Source: Chloroflexota bacterium
GTDB lineage: Bacteria; Chloroflexota; Dehalococcoidia; DSTF01; RBG-16-68-14
Reading direction: 5' to 3'
Length of the DNA: 64,000 bases
Assembly (NCBI GenBank): GCA_022562155.1
Contig: JADFPV010000001.1
Span: 16,508 to 80,507, forward strand
The notes beneath the pieces were generated by a model. That model ran no database searches. It worked only from the letters and a program-made list of their open reading frames with translations, and was not told the DNA's origin. Shown piece by piece: positions 7,901 to 62,685 of the stretch. Each line of letters starts with the position of its first letter. The first letter of the stretch is position 1. The position numbers were made by a program, and so were the translations under genes.

Positions 7901-7957
7901 ATGATACGTGACGCGTCGAGATTTCCCATGTGTAGGGGCGCATGGCCATGCGCCCAG

Positions 7958-8012
7958 CTCCCCCGGCGTCTATCCGCCGTCGGCGGAGGAGAGCGTAGCC
8001 CTACCGCATCAC
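7958..8012. repeat. Direct repeat copy A (ccggcgtcTATCCGCCGTCGGCGGAGGAGAgcGTaGCCCTACCGCA)
   Basis: ~47/52 identical to copy B at 9330..9385. Together they bracket the methyltransferase gene. Contains internal palindrome ccgccgtcggcgg. Confidence 0.7.
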
Positions 8013-8072: not shown

Positions 8073-9143
8073 ATGATTCTACGTATCGCAGCAGTCGGAG
8101 TTGTCTTCGCGCTCATCGCGGCTGCCCTGCGTAAAACGAGTTGGTACAGAACCAAGACCGCGTTTATCGGGTTGAAGCGTCTAGCAACGCTGTCCGAGGA
8201 GGACAAGCAAGCTGCTATCGACGGGTATAAATTCCTTCAACGAATGCAAGACGGTGAGAAGACCGAGACCGAGGATGAGACGAAAGCGGTCGCGGACTAT
8301 TACAAGGTCTTGAACAACGTGTTGTCGGTCTTCGATTTGGAGAAACTCTACCTCCCTCCATTGCTGAACGAATTTGAGGGTTTGTATGAGAATCAGTTGT
8401 TATGCGAACAAGCTGTGTTGCAGGAACTGAATCTAACGAACCCTGAAACGTCCCATCTATTGGATATGGGGTGCGGGAGAGGAAGAATTTCGCATTACCT
8501 CGCCACGCTGACCGGTGGCCAGGTATCCGGCTATAACATCGATCCGAATCAGATTGAAAACGCGATCGGCTGGGCCGCTGAATGTGGAATGAGCGATCGG
8601 CTCCACTTCAAAGTGGGCAATCATCACAATCCGCTTGAGTACGAATCAGGTACCTTCGATGGATGCTTTTCCTTCCAGGCCGTCTGGCCCTTCTTCAAGA
8701 AGGAGGAGCTGGATGACCATGCGAGAGAGATGTATCGCGTGTTGAAACCCGGAGCTCGATACTCTTGTTCTGAGTATTTGTTGACCCCTCATTTTGATTG
8801 GAACAACGAAGAGCATGTAACGCTTCAGAAAGCCTACCTTCCAACTCTGGCGGCCACTCAATCGATGTATCCAGCCGATGTCTGCGCCGCGTTGGAACGA
8901 GCGGGATTCAACATTCTCATTTCGGCGCCTTCGAGAGGCCCAGCCTGGCCGCTAGGCGAGCAGAAGCGCGATCTGATCTTGAGGGGCCGCAAAGTGGTCA
9001 GAGGCCTTGAGTCGATTCGCATGATGCCGCCATGGGTCGAAGAATTGCTCGAGCTACTTCAAACAGGTGGCCAGGCTTGGACGGATGCCGAAAAAGCTAA
9101 AATCGCCGATCTGAACTGGAGAATCGTCGCGGAGAAAGAATGA
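8073..9143 (+). CDS. Membrane-anchored class I SAM-dependent methyltransferase, sterol C-24 methyltransferase (ERG6/SMT)-like
   Basis: N-terminal TM helix. Motif I LLDMGCGRGRIS. FDGCFSFQAVWPF / MYRVLKPGARY / TPHFDWNNEEH regions parallel the ERG6 regions FDKVYAIEATCHAP / IYKVLKPGG / YDENNPEH (recalled from memory), but the YEYGWG sterol-binding motif is not conserved. Low-GC codon usage; strong RBS aggaggggg. Confidence 0.6.
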   Translation: MILRIAAVGVVFALIAAALRKTSWYRTKTAFIGLKRLATLSEEDKQAAIDGYKFLQRMQDGEKTETEDETKAVADYYKVLNNVLSVFDLEKLYLPPLLNEFEGLYENQLLCEQAVLQELNLTNPETSHLLDMGCGRGRISHYLATLTGGQVSGYNIDPNQIENAIGWAAECGMSDRLHFKVGNHHNPLEYESGTFDGCFSFQAVWPFFKKEELDDHAREMYRVLKPGARYSCSEYLLTPHFDWNNEEHVTLQKAYLPTLAATQSMYPADVCAALERAGFNILISAPSRGPAWPLGEQKRDLILRGRKVVRGLESIRMMPPWVEELLELLQTGGQAWTDAEKAKIADLNWRIVAEKE

Positions 9144-9329: not shown

Positions 9330-9385
9330 CCCCTCTCCCGGCGTTTATCCGCCGTTGGCGGAGGAGAAGGTGGCCCTACCGCAAA
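9330..9385. repeat. Direct repeat copy B (ccggcgttTATCCGCCGTTGGCGGAGGAGAagGTgGCCCTACCGCA)
   Basis: Pairs with 7958..8012. Confidence 0.7.
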
Positions 9386-9461
9386 GCGGGAGGGCCGGGT
9401 GAGCGCACCACGGCCAGCTCGCCGAGGTGGGCGGGACGGCGAGGACAGTGCGGATTGTGGG

Positions 9462-10298
9462 TCAGGCCTGCTTCAAACCCCGGGCCTTGATGAGGTCTTC
9501 AACCGTCTCGACCACAGTGGAAGCCTTGTAGACGACTCCCAGATCTATCATCTCTCTCGTCTTCACAAATGGTACCTGCGCCGTAGGGATTGACCTAAAA
9601 CCAATCTCTCCTTCATCTTCCCTATATGCGACTTGGCCGACCAGCCCGAGAAAGATGATCCTACTTCCCACCACGAGGCCCTTCATGGTCGAGTAACTGC
9701 CAACGTTGTGGATGAAGACTGGGCTTCCGCTTGAGCCCGGAAAGACCGATGCATCTATCAAAAAGACTGGTTCGCCGTTGTAATCGAGAGCCAGCGGCGT
9801 TGCGGTTGTCCCTCTTCGCATGATCGGCGTAAGGTTCTTGGTATCTAACAGACCGTTCGGATAGCCGACGAAAACCACCTCTTCCAGTGCATCTAGTTCC
9901 TCGATCTGCTCTTCTGTCGGAATCCAGTCGCTTGGGACGAACCTGAAGAAAATCTGCTTCTTCAGCTCCCTGATCTTCGTGATGAGGGGGCCCAAGGGCA
10001 TCACTGCTACGTCGACCTCGTCCCGGGGATGCCCGTGCCACTGTGAGGCGGCATCTTCAATTGTGAACCCGACGGCCTTCCCGATTACGGGTTCCTTGCC
10101 ATCGCTCGCTGTAAAGAAGAAACGAGCGGTCTCCGCGCGCTCCACTACGTGTTTGTTGGTCACAAGTACCGGTACGGCGGCGTCATCCTTGAGATAGTTG
10201 AATACGAACGTCGTAGCGGTACCAGCCCCAGTCGGGCCAACGGTCTCAAGCCGTACGGTACTGAAGAGAAGCTGTTGCGCTAGAGTTTCGACCTTCAT
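9462..10298 (-). CDS. Cytoplasmic trypsin-like (S1/Trypsin_2 fold) serine protease
   Basis: No signal peptide. His region VLVTNKHVV; catalytic Ser motif GSSGSPVF; Asp region. Lower GC than genome. Confidence 0.65.
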   Translation of the reverse strand: MKVETLAQQLLFSTVRLETVGPTGAGTATTFVFNYLKDDAAVPVLVTNKHVVERAETARFFFTASDGKEPVIGKAVGFTIEDAASQWHGHPRDEVDVAVMPLGPLITKIRELKKQIFFRFVPSDWIPTEEQIEELDALEEVVFVGYPNGLLDTKNLTPIMRRGTTATPLALDYNGEPVFLIDASVFPGSSGSPVFIHNVGSYSTMKGLVVGSRIIFLGLVGQVAYREDEGEIGFRSIPTAQVPFVKTREMIDLGVVYKASTVVETVEDLIKARGLKQA

Positions 10299-10313
10299 CT
10301 CTCGGTTGCGAGG

Positions 10314-10547
10314 CTACCTTGGCTCATAGCGAAGGGGCCGACCTTCAGCCCTAAACAGGTGCGGATACTTCCTTACTCGGGCACTGATCTGACTAGGAGG
10401 AGGGTAGTCGCCGTCGTGGCGAACGTAAAGGCCACGCCGCTCGATCTCGGCTGAGATCTCTCGCGCAGGTAGCTGGCGCCCTACCCTACGCAGGACGTCT
10501 AGTATCGCTTCGTGGAGCGTGACCTGCTCAGGCGTGCGATTCGGCAC
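10314..10547 (-). CDS. HARE-HTH (winged-helix) small DNA-binding protein
   Basis: TLHEAILDVLRRVGRQLPAREISAEIERRGLYV...ISARVRKYPHLFRAEGRPLRYE matches the HARE-HTH/Mrr_N-like pattern. Probable GTG start at 10547 with GGGAGAG SD (the tracked ORF extends to 10622). 15-nt gap to the protease start. Confidence 0.55.
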   Translation of the reverse strand: MPNRTPEQVTLHEAILDVLRRVGRQLPAREISAEIERRGLYVRHDGDYPPPSQISARVRKYPHLFRAEGRPLRYEPR

Positions 10548-10994
10548 TGGTACTCTCCCGGCTCTCGGTCCGCCACCTGACCCTAAGCGCTCTCGCTTCT
10601 GGCTTCTACTATCGCAACCCACCCGCTATCCTAGCACCTCGCCCACCGTATGCTCCGTCGGAGCGAACCGCTCCGGCTCGCTGGCGATCGTGACCACCGC
10701 AGCCGCCACCTTCTCCTGGCTGGCGGACGCGATCTGCAGGCCAGGACGCCACCATCCTCTTCAGGCTCTCGCTGCTAGCTGTTACGCTCGACAGGCCATC
10801 GTCCAAGTTACCCAACGGGTAGCCGGGTACCTTACCAACTAAATCGCACCGGCGTCGCGAAAAACAACGTGAATCTACCACCGGATTCAATCAACCAAAA
10901 CCGTCTAAAACGGCCTCGACTCGAATCTGACCGGTTTCCAAAACCGCGATTTTAATCAAACAATCAAAACGGCCAGATCAGTCGTAGGGGCGCT

Positions 10995-11045
10995 GCTCGC
11001 CGCGCCCTGCAGAAGCGAAGCTTCTGCCAAGCTGACCGCAGGTCA
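10995..11045. repeat. REP-like element (gcagaagcGAAgcttctgc + caagctgaccgcaggtcagcc)
   Basis: Same modules as 341, 2530 and 3040. Confidence 0.7.
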
Positions 11046-11666
11046 GCCGCCCGGCCGACGCAGTGCCTCGCCCGACTTGCTCGCTGCGAACGTCTCCGGG
11101 TCGAGCTGCAGCCCGAGGCCGTCGGCCATGCGCGTCAGGTAGTTGAACACCCCGACGATGTGCGCCACTTCCAGGCACTGCTCATCGTCAAACCCGAGGT
11201 CACGGAGCGGTTGCCAGTCCTCCTCCACCATCCGCGTCGGCGTCGCGCTCATCTTGTGCGCCACCTCGCATAGCGCCCGGTCTTTGGGAGACAGCTCAAG
11301 CTCCTGCCAGCGGTGCTCCTCAATCGCCTTCACCAGCTCATCGTCGCCGCCTTCAGTACGCAGAAACTCTGCGTGGGAGACCGTTCAGTAGTGGCAGTCC
11401 TGGCCCGCCGATGTCACAGCGGCCACCATCTCCCGCTCGCGACGGTTCAACGTGCCATCCTCGCTGAACATGATCTCGGAGAACAACTGTCCAAACTTGG
11501 CCCCGATGCGGCCGTGCGCCATGATCAGCCGCGCCATCGCCGGGAAGAAGCTGGTGAAGTCGTAAGGGTGGACCGGAGCCTCGCGGTCTTTGGGCGCGCC
11601 CGCCATCAGCTCTTCGCTTGTCGGTATCTTCACCCAGGCGTCAGTCGTCTTCTTCTCGGTCACCAT
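11043..11666 (-). CDS. AhpD-like / carboxymuconolactone decarboxylase family peroxidase-related protein with in-frame UGA (candidate selenoprotein)
   Basis: Tracked ORFs 11385..11666 and 11043..11333 are one frame separated only by TGA (11385-11387). Read through it gives ...SAGQDCHY[U]TVSHAEF..., matching the AhpD active site C-x-x-C-x-x-x-H with Sec at the second Cys. Confidence 0.6.
11350..11384 (-). promoter_or_regulatory. Candidate bacterial SECIS hairpin downstream of UGA
   Basis: mRNA UGA-ACGGUCUCCC-ACGCAG-AGUUU-CUGCGU: 6-7 bp perfect stem starting 10-11 nt after UGA, with G/U in the apical loop. Confidence 0.45.
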
Positions 11667-60005: not shown

Positions 60006-60395
60006 ATGGCTATGAAGCAAGTCGTGACATGGAGAACAGGCGCACTGATAGCGCTCCTGGCGCATGCGCTGTTGCTCATGTCCGCAGCGTTCACTATCGC
60101 GATACTGGCTGCCGTTGGGAAGGAGATCGACGTTCGGGTCGAGATCGATGAGCAGATTGTCGCCCTCCTGGTATTCGCAGCGGTCATTCCCTACGTTCCC
60201 ATCTTCGTGTTGTACGTGCCCACTGTAGCTTCCAGGCTGCGAGTCACTGGGTTCGGCTTCAAGCTAGGCCCGTTCGAGGTCAAGGGCGAGCTGAGTGATG
60301 AGTATGATGAGACGGCAAGACATTTGAGGGCTGCCGAGTCCGAAGTTGATATAATGATTGAGGGAGTTCGGCATCAGATTGGTGAGGATCTCTAA
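60006..60395 (+). CDS. Small 3-TM membrane protein with acidic C-terminal tail (inserted in his operon)
   Basis: Low-GC ORF; three hydrophobic helices. Confidence 0.45.
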   Translation: MAMKQVVTWRTGALIALLAHALLLMSAAFTIAILAAVGKEIDVRVEIDEQIVALLVFAAVIPYVPIFVLYVPTVASRLRVTGFGFKLGPFEVKGELSDEYDETARHLRAAESEVDIMIEGVRHQIGEDL

Positions 60396-60397
60396 CC

Positions 60398-60823
60398 ATG
60401 AACATGGAATCAGAAGTCTCCAGTTTCAGTGCGACAGACCAACCCGAGTTGGCTCTTGTCGAGATGCGACGCGGGCTTGAGAGAAAGTTGAGACGGCTGG
60501 CTGACGCTGTGCCTCCGCCGGACATGGGTGGTTTGCTAGGGGAAACAAAGTCTTCCACCGAGCTACTTACAGGACTGAAAGAGTGCGGCGTATTGAGCAA
60601 AAACCTGGCAGCCTCAGTCCACGGTGTCCTGAAGCTAGCCACCCCTGCTGCTCACGGGATACGAGTCAGTCCTGCAGATGCGGCTAGAACGATAGATCTC
60701 GGCGACTCCGTTGTTGAAATCCTTGATCAGCTGATAAGTGTTGCGACCCCGTTCTCTATAAGTGAACCGGCCGCTGGTGTTGCAGAACCAACTGCTGAAT
60801 CTAGACCGGCCGACCAAGGCTGA
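60398..60823 (+). CDS. DUF4145/HEPN-like small cytoplasmic protein
   Basis: LALVEMRRGLERKLRRLAD...ELLTGLKECGVLSKNLAASVHGVLKLATPAAHG resembles the DUF4145 helical pattern. Starts 2 nt after the upstream stop. Confidence 0.4.
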   Translation: MNMESEVSSFSATDQPELALVEMRRGLERKLRRLADAVPPPDMGGLLGETKSSTELLTGLKECGVLSKNLAASVHGVLKLATPAAHGIRVSPADAARTIDLGDSVVEILDQLISVATPFSISEPAAGVAEPTAESRPADQG

Positions 60824-62058: not shown

Positions 62059-62685
62059 TTGCGGTCATCATGCCTTGTTGTGGGCGGGGCCTGCTATATT
62101 ACGTCCGTTATGTGGCGGTCCGTTGTTGCGATCACGTTTCTCCTCTTCCTCTCCGCATGCGCGAGTTCCGCGAACGCGCCAACGGTCCAGCCATTTCCGA
62201 CATCAACCGTGCTTTCGAAAGATCAGGCGCTAAGCTCTTGCGAGACACTGGAAGACGTGCCTAACGCTGTACTCTCCTACGGGGATCAGAGACAAGACGA
62301 CGCAAGGATGGCGATAAATTGGCAGTTCGACGACTGCGCCATCACTGGCCATCCTTTCGTCACGCTACCGCTTCCGCCCTCTGTGATTCGCATTCCGCGT
62401 GGTGAAAGGCCAGTGCTGGAATTTTCGGCTCAGCCAGAGTCTGTTTCGGGTTACGCCTGGGAACCCGCTTTCGACAAGGTGGAGGAGTCATCGAGCAACC
62501 GGCTGGAGGTACCCCTCGACGATCTCCGCCGCTCTACGCTGATCGATCTAGAGTTTGAACCGTCTATCTCGCAGGTGCTGGACCTTAGTGCGCTGCCACC
62601 GGCTGAGTATGCCATAGAGGTGTTTACTGGTTGGCGCAGAGGGTCGTCAGGATTCGCATTCCGCGTAGAAATCATAGAGCCTTAG
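62059..62685 (+). CDS. Hypothetical lipoprotein
   Basis: Signal + LSACASS lipobox; lower GC; no family recognised. Confidence 0.4.
   Translation: MRSSCLVVGGACYITSVMWRSVVAITFLLFLSACASSANAPTVQPFPTSTVLSKDQALSSCETLEDVPNAVLSYGDQRQDDARMAINWQFDDCAITGHPFVTLPLPPSVIRIPRGERPVLEFSAQPESVSGYAWEPAFDKVEESSSNRLEVPLDDLRRSTLIDLEFEPSISQVLDLSALPPAEYAIEVFTGWRRGSSGFAFRVEIIEP

Follow-up and report, generated by a model that had tools for sequence, protein, structure and literature searches.

Gene arrangement and composition of the locus

The locus analysed here lies in a Chloroflexota bacterium of the class Dehalococcoidia (GenBank assembly GCA_022562155.1, contig JADFPV010000001.1, positions 16,508 to 80,507 of the forward strand); this whole stretch of 64,000 nucleotides is called the window below. 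It carries two adjacent minus-strand genes, one for a small helix-turn-helix (HTH) protein of the HARE-HTH type and one for a trypsin-like serine protease, which a preliminary description had presented as perhaps a mobile sensor/effector pair with a possible role in defence. Our analysis points to the protease by itself as a defence candidate and to the HTH gene as its local neighbour. The elements of the locus are as follows.

9462-10298, minus strand: protease open reading frame (ORF), 278 aa, ATG start, stop codon at 9462-9464
10314-10547, minus strand: HARE-HTH-type winged-helix gene, 77 aa from a GTG; the longest ORF reaches 10622
10299-10313, minus strand: 15-nt interval from the stop of the HTH gene to the start of the protease gene; synteny with the relatives at loci L091, L092 and L086 ends here
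10548-10627, minus strand: leader and Shine-Dalgarno (SD) region of the HTH gene, conserved by blastn and alignment; conservation is patchier up to about 10903
9412-9462, plus strand: remnant of a gene resembling phosphoenolpyruvate (PEP)-utilising enzymes, C-terminal 17 codons; right border of a variable slot

Both ORFs and the 15-nt gap between them were confirmed. For the HTH gene, the longest ORF offers an alternative reading of 102 aa from the GTG at 10622. The real start is likely the GTG at 10547, which gives 77 aa, because the SD sequence GGGAGAG lies upstream of it at a 6-nt spacing, because 77 aa is also the length that gene callers give for three independent metagenome contigs from this organism, and because the start and the SD sequence are aligned in three relatives (L086, L091 and L092). 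At L086 the preceding gene ends 3 nt before the HTH gene, so that the longer reading is impossible there. The N-terminus of the protease matches those of its homologues residue for residue in the alignment.

No terminator-like hairpin was found in the 15-nt gap, and co-transcription of the two genes is therefore plausible. Translational coupling through a GAGAG before the protease ATG had also been proposed; this GAGAG directly touches the ATG, with zero spacing, which is not a well-placed SD sequence, so that coupling is not shown. The lower GC content ascribed to this stretch is borne out by the GC content at third codon positions (GC3), which is 0.65 in the protease gene, 0.63 in the HTH gene and 0.61 in the neighbouring methyltransferase gene (0.61-0.65) versus 0.72-0.86 in the flanking genes; most genes of the window have values of 0.70-0.92. 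The upstream spacer had been called AT-rich; with a GC content of 0.60 it is not especially so. A scan of the HTH leader region found no sigma-70-like promoter consensus, the spacer and flanks contain no Rfam family (one miRNA match was at chance level), and there is no tRNA in the window.

The protease and its family

The protease matches three profiles: Trypsin_2 of Pfam (E 6.4e-9; 37.1 bits against a gathering score of 27.6), PDC-S45 of PADLOC (E 6.6e-95; 315 bits; residues 1-271 on profile positions 11-285 of 293) and PHROG 7688 (phrog_7688; E 2e-69), to which no function is assigned. NCBIfam gave no match, and an identical protein is annotated as "trypsin-like peptidase domain-containing protein". 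The family is large, with 5292 relatives in a search of 5.8 billion proteins, and the relatives listed have about 265-320 aa and one Pfam domain each. At least 545 protease loci were found in a scan of one genome per species, the hosts of which include bacteria (Chloroflexota, Actinomycetota, Planctomycetota, Bacteroidota, Bacillota and Pseudomonadota) and archaea (among them Nitrososphaeria, Bathyarchaeota, Woesearchaeota, Nanoarchaeota and Methanophagaceae).

The catalytic triad His50/Asp96/Ser192 is invariant in 81 of 81 family members; in the window protein the His lies in the motif VTNKHVV and the Ser in GSSGSPV. The AlphaFold2 model (pLDDT 85.4, pTM 0.87) has the PA-clan fold, so that the trypsin-fold assignment stands; it consists of a double beta-barrel core, a long beta-hairpin, a low-confidence loop at residues 229-250 and a conserved C-terminal helix, and the C-terminal beta-hairpin and helix are specific to this family. 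Foldseek searches of PDB and BFVD returned generic PA-clan matches only (DegQ 3pv5, V8 1qy6, FAM111A, TEV and 3C-like proteases), with TM-scores of about 0.5 and identities of 10-17%; the probability was 1.0 for DegQ, V8 and TEV. No close, informative structural relative was present in either database.

As for localisation, a hydrophobic N-terminal segment is absent from all 81 members (19-residue windows within the first 58 aa, Kyte-Doolittle cut-off of 1.6), which agrees with the lack of a signal peptide noted earlier and argues for a cytoplasmic enzyme over an HtrA-like periplasmic one. The N-terminus is, moreover, part of the folded core in the model. The alternative that the preliminary description had raised against its own proposal, a secreted or periplasmic housekeeping protease of the HtrA type, can be dismissed, since the 278-aa protein has a single domain, no signal peptide and no PDZ match. 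A protease of the retron type XI kind, in which it accompanies a reverse transcriptase (RT), was also rejected: only marginal matches (E 0.002) fall on the protease part of that profile, and there is no RT domain. Taken by its triad and its model, the protein is a catalytically intact, predicted cytoplasmic, single-domain serine endopeptidase of the chymotrypsin fold.

The HARE-HTH protein and its family

The HTH protein scores 22.7-23.8 bits on the Pfam HARE-HTH profile (PF05066; E 5.9e-5), a domain that Pfam describes as "restriction endonuclease HTH domain". Its best value of 23.8 bits is just under the gathering score of 25.9, while 11 of 22 sampled relatives match the profile at E <= 0.01 (best 2.3e-7) and one carries a precomputed PF05066 match. 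The earlier HARE-HTH identification is therefore accepted at the family level, as a predicted winged helix with the conserved pattern LHEA..V...EI...LY.R.DG..P..QI.AR...Y..LF, and not from the score of the window protein itself. The protein is basic (isoelectric point 10.4), and its AlphaFold2 model has three helices (pLDDT 79). Most of the top Foldseek matches of this model are winged-helix regulators (Fur, Zur, MecI and ArgR), all with E > 1, and the sequence profile found no significant match among the solved structures of the PDB. Remote-homology searches, which had been suggested for both proteins, thus yielded a generic PA-clan fold for the protease and, for the HTH protein, no significant solved-structure match by profile or by Foldseek.

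Four relatives of the HTH protein were found in a first search, 25 further loci in a metagenome scan and 399 proteins in a profile search. The family therefore comprises at least 399 proteins, most of which stand alone and are 69-85 aa long, many of them in Bacteroidota (L093-L117, L126-L132; P0126-P0240). The genes that follow the distant relatives, at distances of -11 to +39 nt, differ by lineage and include a GIY-YIG nuclease, a 160-aa protein, a 296-299-aa family and a lipoprotein gene, which in Alistipes lies between uvrB and dnaG; some relatives are fused to a C-terminal domain and adjoin an ADP-ribosylglycohydrolase gene. There is no common partner 3' of the HTH relatives: close relatives apart, the proteins encoded there are unrelated to each other. 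Pfam recognises ADP-ribosylglycohydrolase, GIY-YIG, a weak HicA match or nothing in these proteins, and PADLOC gave a single marginal match (PDC-S14, E 6e-4) and no significant defence match.

Association between the HTH and protease genes

Co-occurrence of the two genes was examined at 160 protease loci, namely 80 in species-representative genomes (+-3 kb) and 80 on IMG/VR viral contigs (flanks of up to 5 kb on each side), where the 7571 ORFs were searched for HTH relatives with tblastn and with hidden Markov models built from 5 and from 22 sequences. At E < 0.1, none was found among the 2779 ORFs of the genomes or among the 4792 ORFs of the viral contigs. Reciprocally, the protease is present at 0 of the 25 metagenome loci of HTH relatives, nor was it found in the contigs of the relatives P0122-P0125. 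The proposed pairing of a mobile sensor with an effector thus finds no recurrence in other genomes, an outcome that the preliminary description had itself named as refuting its proposal.

The closest relatives of the HTH gene allow the junction to be located. At L086 an HTH gene encoding a 72% identical protein is preceded, as in the window, by a CMD/AhpD-like gene (C-terminus ...VFNYLTRMADGFGLLLDP...) and is followed by genes for a PadR regulator and a 209-aa protein. At L091 and L092 the HTH protein is likewise 72% identical, and the next gene, 7 nt downstream, encodes a Cys-rich protein that may be called HNH-like from its motifs alone, without Pfam support. In these three related genomes the genes that occupy this place, referred to here as cargo, start 7-88 nt 3' of the HTH gene on the same strand. 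Comparison of the window with L091 and L092 by blastn gave 72% identity over 10627-10354 and a further match at 10903-10861, so that the DNA similarity begins in the last part of the CMD-like gene, extends over portions of the spacer and the 80-nt leader, and includes the HTH gene in full. When the window is aligned with L091, L092 and L086 together, similarity goes no further than the TAG stop codon of the HTH gene.

On the far side of the protease, the remnant at 9412-9462 (plus strand, frame 9301) reads ...GQLAEVGGTARTVRIVG and has an in-frame stop before it. It matches the end of an intact minus-strand gene of L086 resembling PEP-utilising enzymes, which closes with ...NGQLVEVDGDAGTVTVVG at its stop codon, and a 28-nt blastn match links the two. 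The remnant abuts, and slightly overlaps, the stop codon of the protease gene. Given the break of synteny at the HTH stop codon and this stub on the other side, the protease alone fills the slot between them.

The sister of the window protease in the tree, found at L001/L084 in another Dehalococcoidia genome, is 57% identical (NadA, 74%). It lies downstream of nadA and of a remnant of the same CMD-like gene, and there is no HTH gene. At L084 a short CMD/AhpD-like remnant is all that survives of that gene, just upstream of the protease. In the window the CMD/AhpD-like gene that precedes the slot is broken up into two minus-strand ORFs (11043-11333 and 11385-11666; 93 and 96 aa) in different frames and 51 nt apart, and it may be disrupted. 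In every relative, GC3 is 0.54-0.70 in the HTH and cargo genes and 0.85-1.0 in the host flanks; the HTH gene is therefore, in its composition, part of the islet and not of the host backbone.

On these comparisons the HTH gene is a local neighbour of the protease and not its conserved partner. For annotators, this means that a tight two-gene layout together with a suggestive HARE-HTH domain does not make a system unless the arrangement recurs, and that the analysis of junctions offers a way to separate a neighbour from a partner.

Genomic contexts of the protease family

Several homologues of the protease are located within type I restriction-modification (R-M) loci (L003, L010, L014, L017, L032 and L058), four of them (L003, L010, L032 and L058) between hsdS and hsdR with 4-nt overlaps: hsdS overlaps the start of the protease gene by 4 nt at L010 and L058, hsdR lies just downstream of it at L003 and L010, and upstream at L032. 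Other restriction-type neighbours are a BsuBI/PstI endonuclease (L027) and an Eco57I/MmeI-type enzyme (L045), and further genes of the conflict type encode a NERD protein (L070), an RNase T-like exonuclease (L020) and a TIR protein (L123); at L121 the homologue is hosted by an RHS/Imm26 toxin locus. Integrases and DDE transposases are also found beside the protease, as are housekeeping genes such as those for OTCase, malate synthase and GATase. Outside the carboxysome loci described below, no gene family recurs beside the protease at the 54 remaining genome loci except type I R-M subunits, integrases and transposases.

The protease is encoded on 114 IMG/VR contigs. The recurrent neighbours there are terminases, endolysins, holins and recombinases, and beyond such ordinary phage genes no family recurs at the 80 viral loci surveyed. 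According to the contig ranges, the gene often lies within a few kb of a contig end, with the caveat that prophage borders, being predicted, may take in genes of the host. An Acinetobacter plasmid of 12 kb has the protease as a lone cargo gene, and in a Bacillus phage-plasmid it lies between the tail genes and an integrase/lysis block. The patchy distribution over phyla, together with the plasmids and the 114 viral contigs, indicates horizontal spread as accessory cargo, and the gene is typically on its own, in R-M operons, in the moron positions of prophages or on small plasmids.

As a separate observation, a gene for an Rce1-like intramembrane protease of the CPBP/Abi family lies 150-370 nt 3' of the protease at two loci (L121/L122:7001-8802 and L125:7001-8605). 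In Anaerolinea thermolimosa the locus with the protease and the Rce1-like gene also adjoins genes for an RHS-repeat toxin and the Imm26 immunity protein.

The neighbouring methyltransferase and other features of the window

The HTH and protease genes are followed by one further gene of low GC3.

8073-9143, convergent with the HTH and protease genes: small-molecule methyltransferase, assigned from profile matches

This gene had been described as a foreign methyltransferase. Its GC3 of 0.61 is low; a link to restriction-modification is not supported, because the enzyme is of the small-molecule, CMAS/UbiE-like kind. Its top-scoring matches are all to small-molecule families (Methyltransf_25/11/31, CMAS and UbiE), there are weak generic matches to MTS and PrmA (E > 0.01), and no clear match to a DNA methylase was found. 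Judged by these profiles, it is a class I small-molecule S-adenosylmethionine-dependent methyltransferase and not a DNA methylase, and an R-M module formed with this neighbour was rejected on the same grounds.

A 51-nt direct repeat (7958-8008 and 9333-9383; 88% identical), unique in the window, brackets the methyltransferase. Having flanking repeats of its own, the gene looks like a separate insertion, apart from the slot that holds the protease, and the place it occupies appears to be the one from which the rest of the gene resembling PEP-utilising enzymes has disappeared. A hairpin motif of the GTAGGGGCGC type occurs at 7932 and at 10984. Elsewhere in the window, three more plus-strand ORFs with unusually low GC3 (0.50-0.65) lie at 60006-60820 and 62059-62682 and are possibly another patch of foreign DNA.

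Interpretation of the locus and alternative explanations

The reading that we favour, and to which we would give about an even chance, is that the protease is a self-contained, single-gene PDC-S45/PHROG 7688 cassette in a variable slot, acting as a latent protease triggered by infection, and that the HTH protein is not a dedicated subunit of it. The slot would be a small variable site in the Chloroflexi chromosome, bordered by the conserved HARE-HTH gene and by the stub of the gene resembling PEP-utilising enzymes, and occupied in related genomes by other cargo. We propose that the protease is kept latent until a cue from an invading phage or plasmid, and that once activated it could cleave a phage protein or an essential host protein, so that the invader would be blocked or the infected cell aborted. 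The proposal draws on two analogues, the abortive-infection effectors that act alone and are nested in R-M loci, and the proteases that are kept latent in immunity. Candidates for a regulatory element are the conserved hairpin and helix at the C-terminus and the flexible loop at residues 229-250. As for the HARE-HTH protein, it is most likely a small factor that binds DNA or acts in transcription, its gene being transcribed together with any cargo that follows, and it would not serve as a sensor subunit of the protease. Of the defence proposal made earlier, what survives is the protease alone, which PADLOC flags independently as PDC-S45; the joint HTH-protease module does not.

Two other explanations give the HTH protein a larger part. 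That the two genes form a dedicated system, in which the HARE-HTH protein would sense foreign or modified DNA and activate the downstream protease as an effector, is suggested by their layout (same strand, 15-nt gap, no terminator in between), by the low GC3 of both, by the description of HARE-HTH as a restriction endonuclease domain, and by the recurrence of the pair, without change, on two further metagenome contigs from this species, while a third contig is too short to show the HTH gene. We nevertheless consider it highly improbable, given that no HTH relative was found at any of the 160 protease loci and no protease at the 25 HTH loci, that the HTH genes of 72% identity in the corresponding position have behind them genes for a PadR regulator and a 209-aa protein or for a Cys-rich protein, that synteny ends at the HTH stop codon, that the sister protease at L084 has no HTH gene, and that the protease lacks a well-spaced SD sequence, so that coupling is not evident. 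Alternatively, the HARE-HTH gene could form the constant part of a small islet, mobile or variable, and regulate, or sense for, interchangeable cargo, which we hold to be unlikely. This would fit the three related genomes that retain the HTH gene ahead of a different same-strand gene, the low GC3 that HTH and cargo have in common and host flanks do not, the unrelated genes (a GIY-YIG nuclease among them) behind the distant relatives, and the size of a mostly stand-alone family. Against it, the downstream genes have no common theme, the marginal PDC-S14 match being their sole match to a defence model, some of the cargo looks non-defensive (the Alistipes lipoprotein and the ADP-ribosylglycohydrolase), and the slot is documented by three short contigs only. 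WYL regulators of the BrxR/CapW type stand in front of diverse defence systems and are an analogue for such an islet. The stronger form of this idea, in which the HARE-HTH protein of this family of at least 399 genes would be a sensor or regulator of DNA state that arms interchangeable cargo (the PDC-S45 protease, the HNH-like gene, the GIY-YIG gene, or PadR with a membrane protein) in an undescribed Chloroflexi mini-islet, as a counterpart of BrxR/CapW, is in our view doubtful.

The single-gene cassette that we favour has, for its part, several observations to contend with, and these weigh against it. The nearest relative, at 57% identity, occupies the same chromosomal position in another Dehalococcoidia genome, which looks like vertical retention and not like recent mobility. 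Most genome neighbours of the protease are unrelated housekeeping genes, and PADLOC found no recognised defence system in the 64-kb window, which also leaves a defence-island location without support; its matches there are isolated and to generic models (for two class I methyltransferases, with a mad2-like MTase match, for a Cas3c-like helicase, for a WYL protein and, weakly, to PDC-S48). The 145 PDCs were themselves released as predicted candidates only (bioRxiv 10.1101/2024.01.29.577857), and the only other mention of PDC-S45 that we found in the literature is in a bioinformatic annotation table of a prophage. Furthermore, 25 of the 80 genome loci (among L038-L080) belong to one monophyletic clade located in alpha-carboxysome/cbbQO loci of about 25 species of chemolithoautotrophs, including Thiobacillus, Thioalkalivibrio, Methyloversatilis, Rhodocyclaceae and Hydrogenophilales, in synteny with a CbbO-like VWA protein, BMC-domain proteins and SulP/STAS proteins. 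Plasmid 1 of Nitrobacter hamburgensis X14 (NC_007959.1 290277-291104; L118:9001-9828) likewise has the protease at the end of its carboxysome locus, in the order csoS2-csoSCA-csoS4AB-csoS1-PCD-parA-cbbQ-cbbO-hyp-protease. With values of 2e-91 and 7e-89, proteins of this clade match PDC-S45 no less strongly than the window protein does, and the model therefore does not tell them apart from other family members. Some of the family, at the least, thus probably has a role outside defence; the association suggests a function tied to carbon fixation or else that PDC-S45 yields systematic false positives. We found no paper on a protease in carboxysome loci, and this clade may be a more interesting lead than the window locus. 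Since the model also captures it, users of PADLOC should not count PDC-S45 matches as defence genes without their context.

A further alternative is that the protease is a non-defence, cytoplasmic enzyme of regulation or quality control that is sometimes carried on mobile DNA, with PDC-S45 as a false positive. Besides the carboxysome clade, with its conserved synteny and equally strong match, the position conserved between the two Chloroflexi genomes, the many housekeeping neighbours and the lack of a defence island in the window favour this view. We regard it as rather unlikely all the same, in view of the repeated nesting of the gene inside type I R-M operons, where stop codons overlap with start codons, the patchy spread over bacterial and archaeal phyla, plasmids and 114 viral contigs, the atypical composition of the window locus, and a divergence that is fast relative to NadA (57% vs 74% identity).

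Comparison with known systems

The HTH protein has the sequence pattern of HARE-HTH domains (PF05066), which form the N-termini of Mrr-type restriction enzymes and of RNA polymerase delta, and a predicted three-helix core that may be a winged helix. It differs from the Mrr-type proteins in being a stand-alone protein of 77 aa with no catalytic domain fused to it. With the HtrA/DegP/DegQ and V8/Spl S1 proteases, the window protease has in common the chymotrypsin (PA-clan) fold and a serine motif of the GxSGSPV type. It lacks their signal peptide, PDZ domain and propeptide, the similarity is limited to a TM-score of about 0.5 and an identity of about 15%, and the family-specific C-terminal hairpin and helix belong to the window protease.

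Proteases of the trypsin type are known as components of anti-phage immunity from the modules in which they are combined with metallo-beta-lactamase-fold (MBL) proteins in Hachiman, Avs2 and Argonaute-associated systems; there a sensor (HamAB, Avs2) is found alongside the trypsin domain or fused to it, and the trypsin domain cleaves the co-occurring MBL-fold nuclease (bioRxiv 10.1101/2025.09.03.673762). These modules provide a precedent for protease-mediated activation in immunity. The window protease differs from them in having neither an MBL gene nor a fused sensor. Membership in such a module was rejected, as no MBL, HamAB, Avs or prokaryotic Argonaute (pAgo) gene lies beside it, and none of these is among the top 25 of the 99 Pfam families in the neighbours of the protease family.

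PrrC and Lit, both solitary abortive-infection effectors, can serve as working models for a lone protease. PrrC is an anticodon nuclease encoded between hsd genes, and Lit is a latent zinc metalloprotease that is triggered by a phage peptide to cleave a host translation factor. Several PDC-S45 homologues are likewise nested in hsd loci; the analogy is a functional one only, as neither protein has a sequence or fold relationship to the window protease. If the protease does protect against phages, it would be a minimal, single-protein form of protease defence worth a mechanistic study.

The nearest comparison is with the PDC-S45 family itself, which belongs to a set of 145 single-gene candidates defined through guilt-by-embedding in BREX, DISARM and type I R-M systems (Payne et al., bioRxiv 10.1101/2024.01.29.577857). 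The window protease differs from this definition in not lying in or near any known defence system, and the model also captures the carboxysome-locus clade. It is alike in its full-length match to the profile and in its single-gene architecture; its relatives nested in type I R-M operons correspond to the criterion by which PDCs are defined, and the contexts of the family as a whole, in type I R-M loci, beside other restriction genes, in prophages and on plasmids, fit the definition of the set. The protease is thus already covered by a catalogued candidate family. As a locus the window matters little, and it adds one further member, from an uncultured Chloroflexi genome, to that large family.

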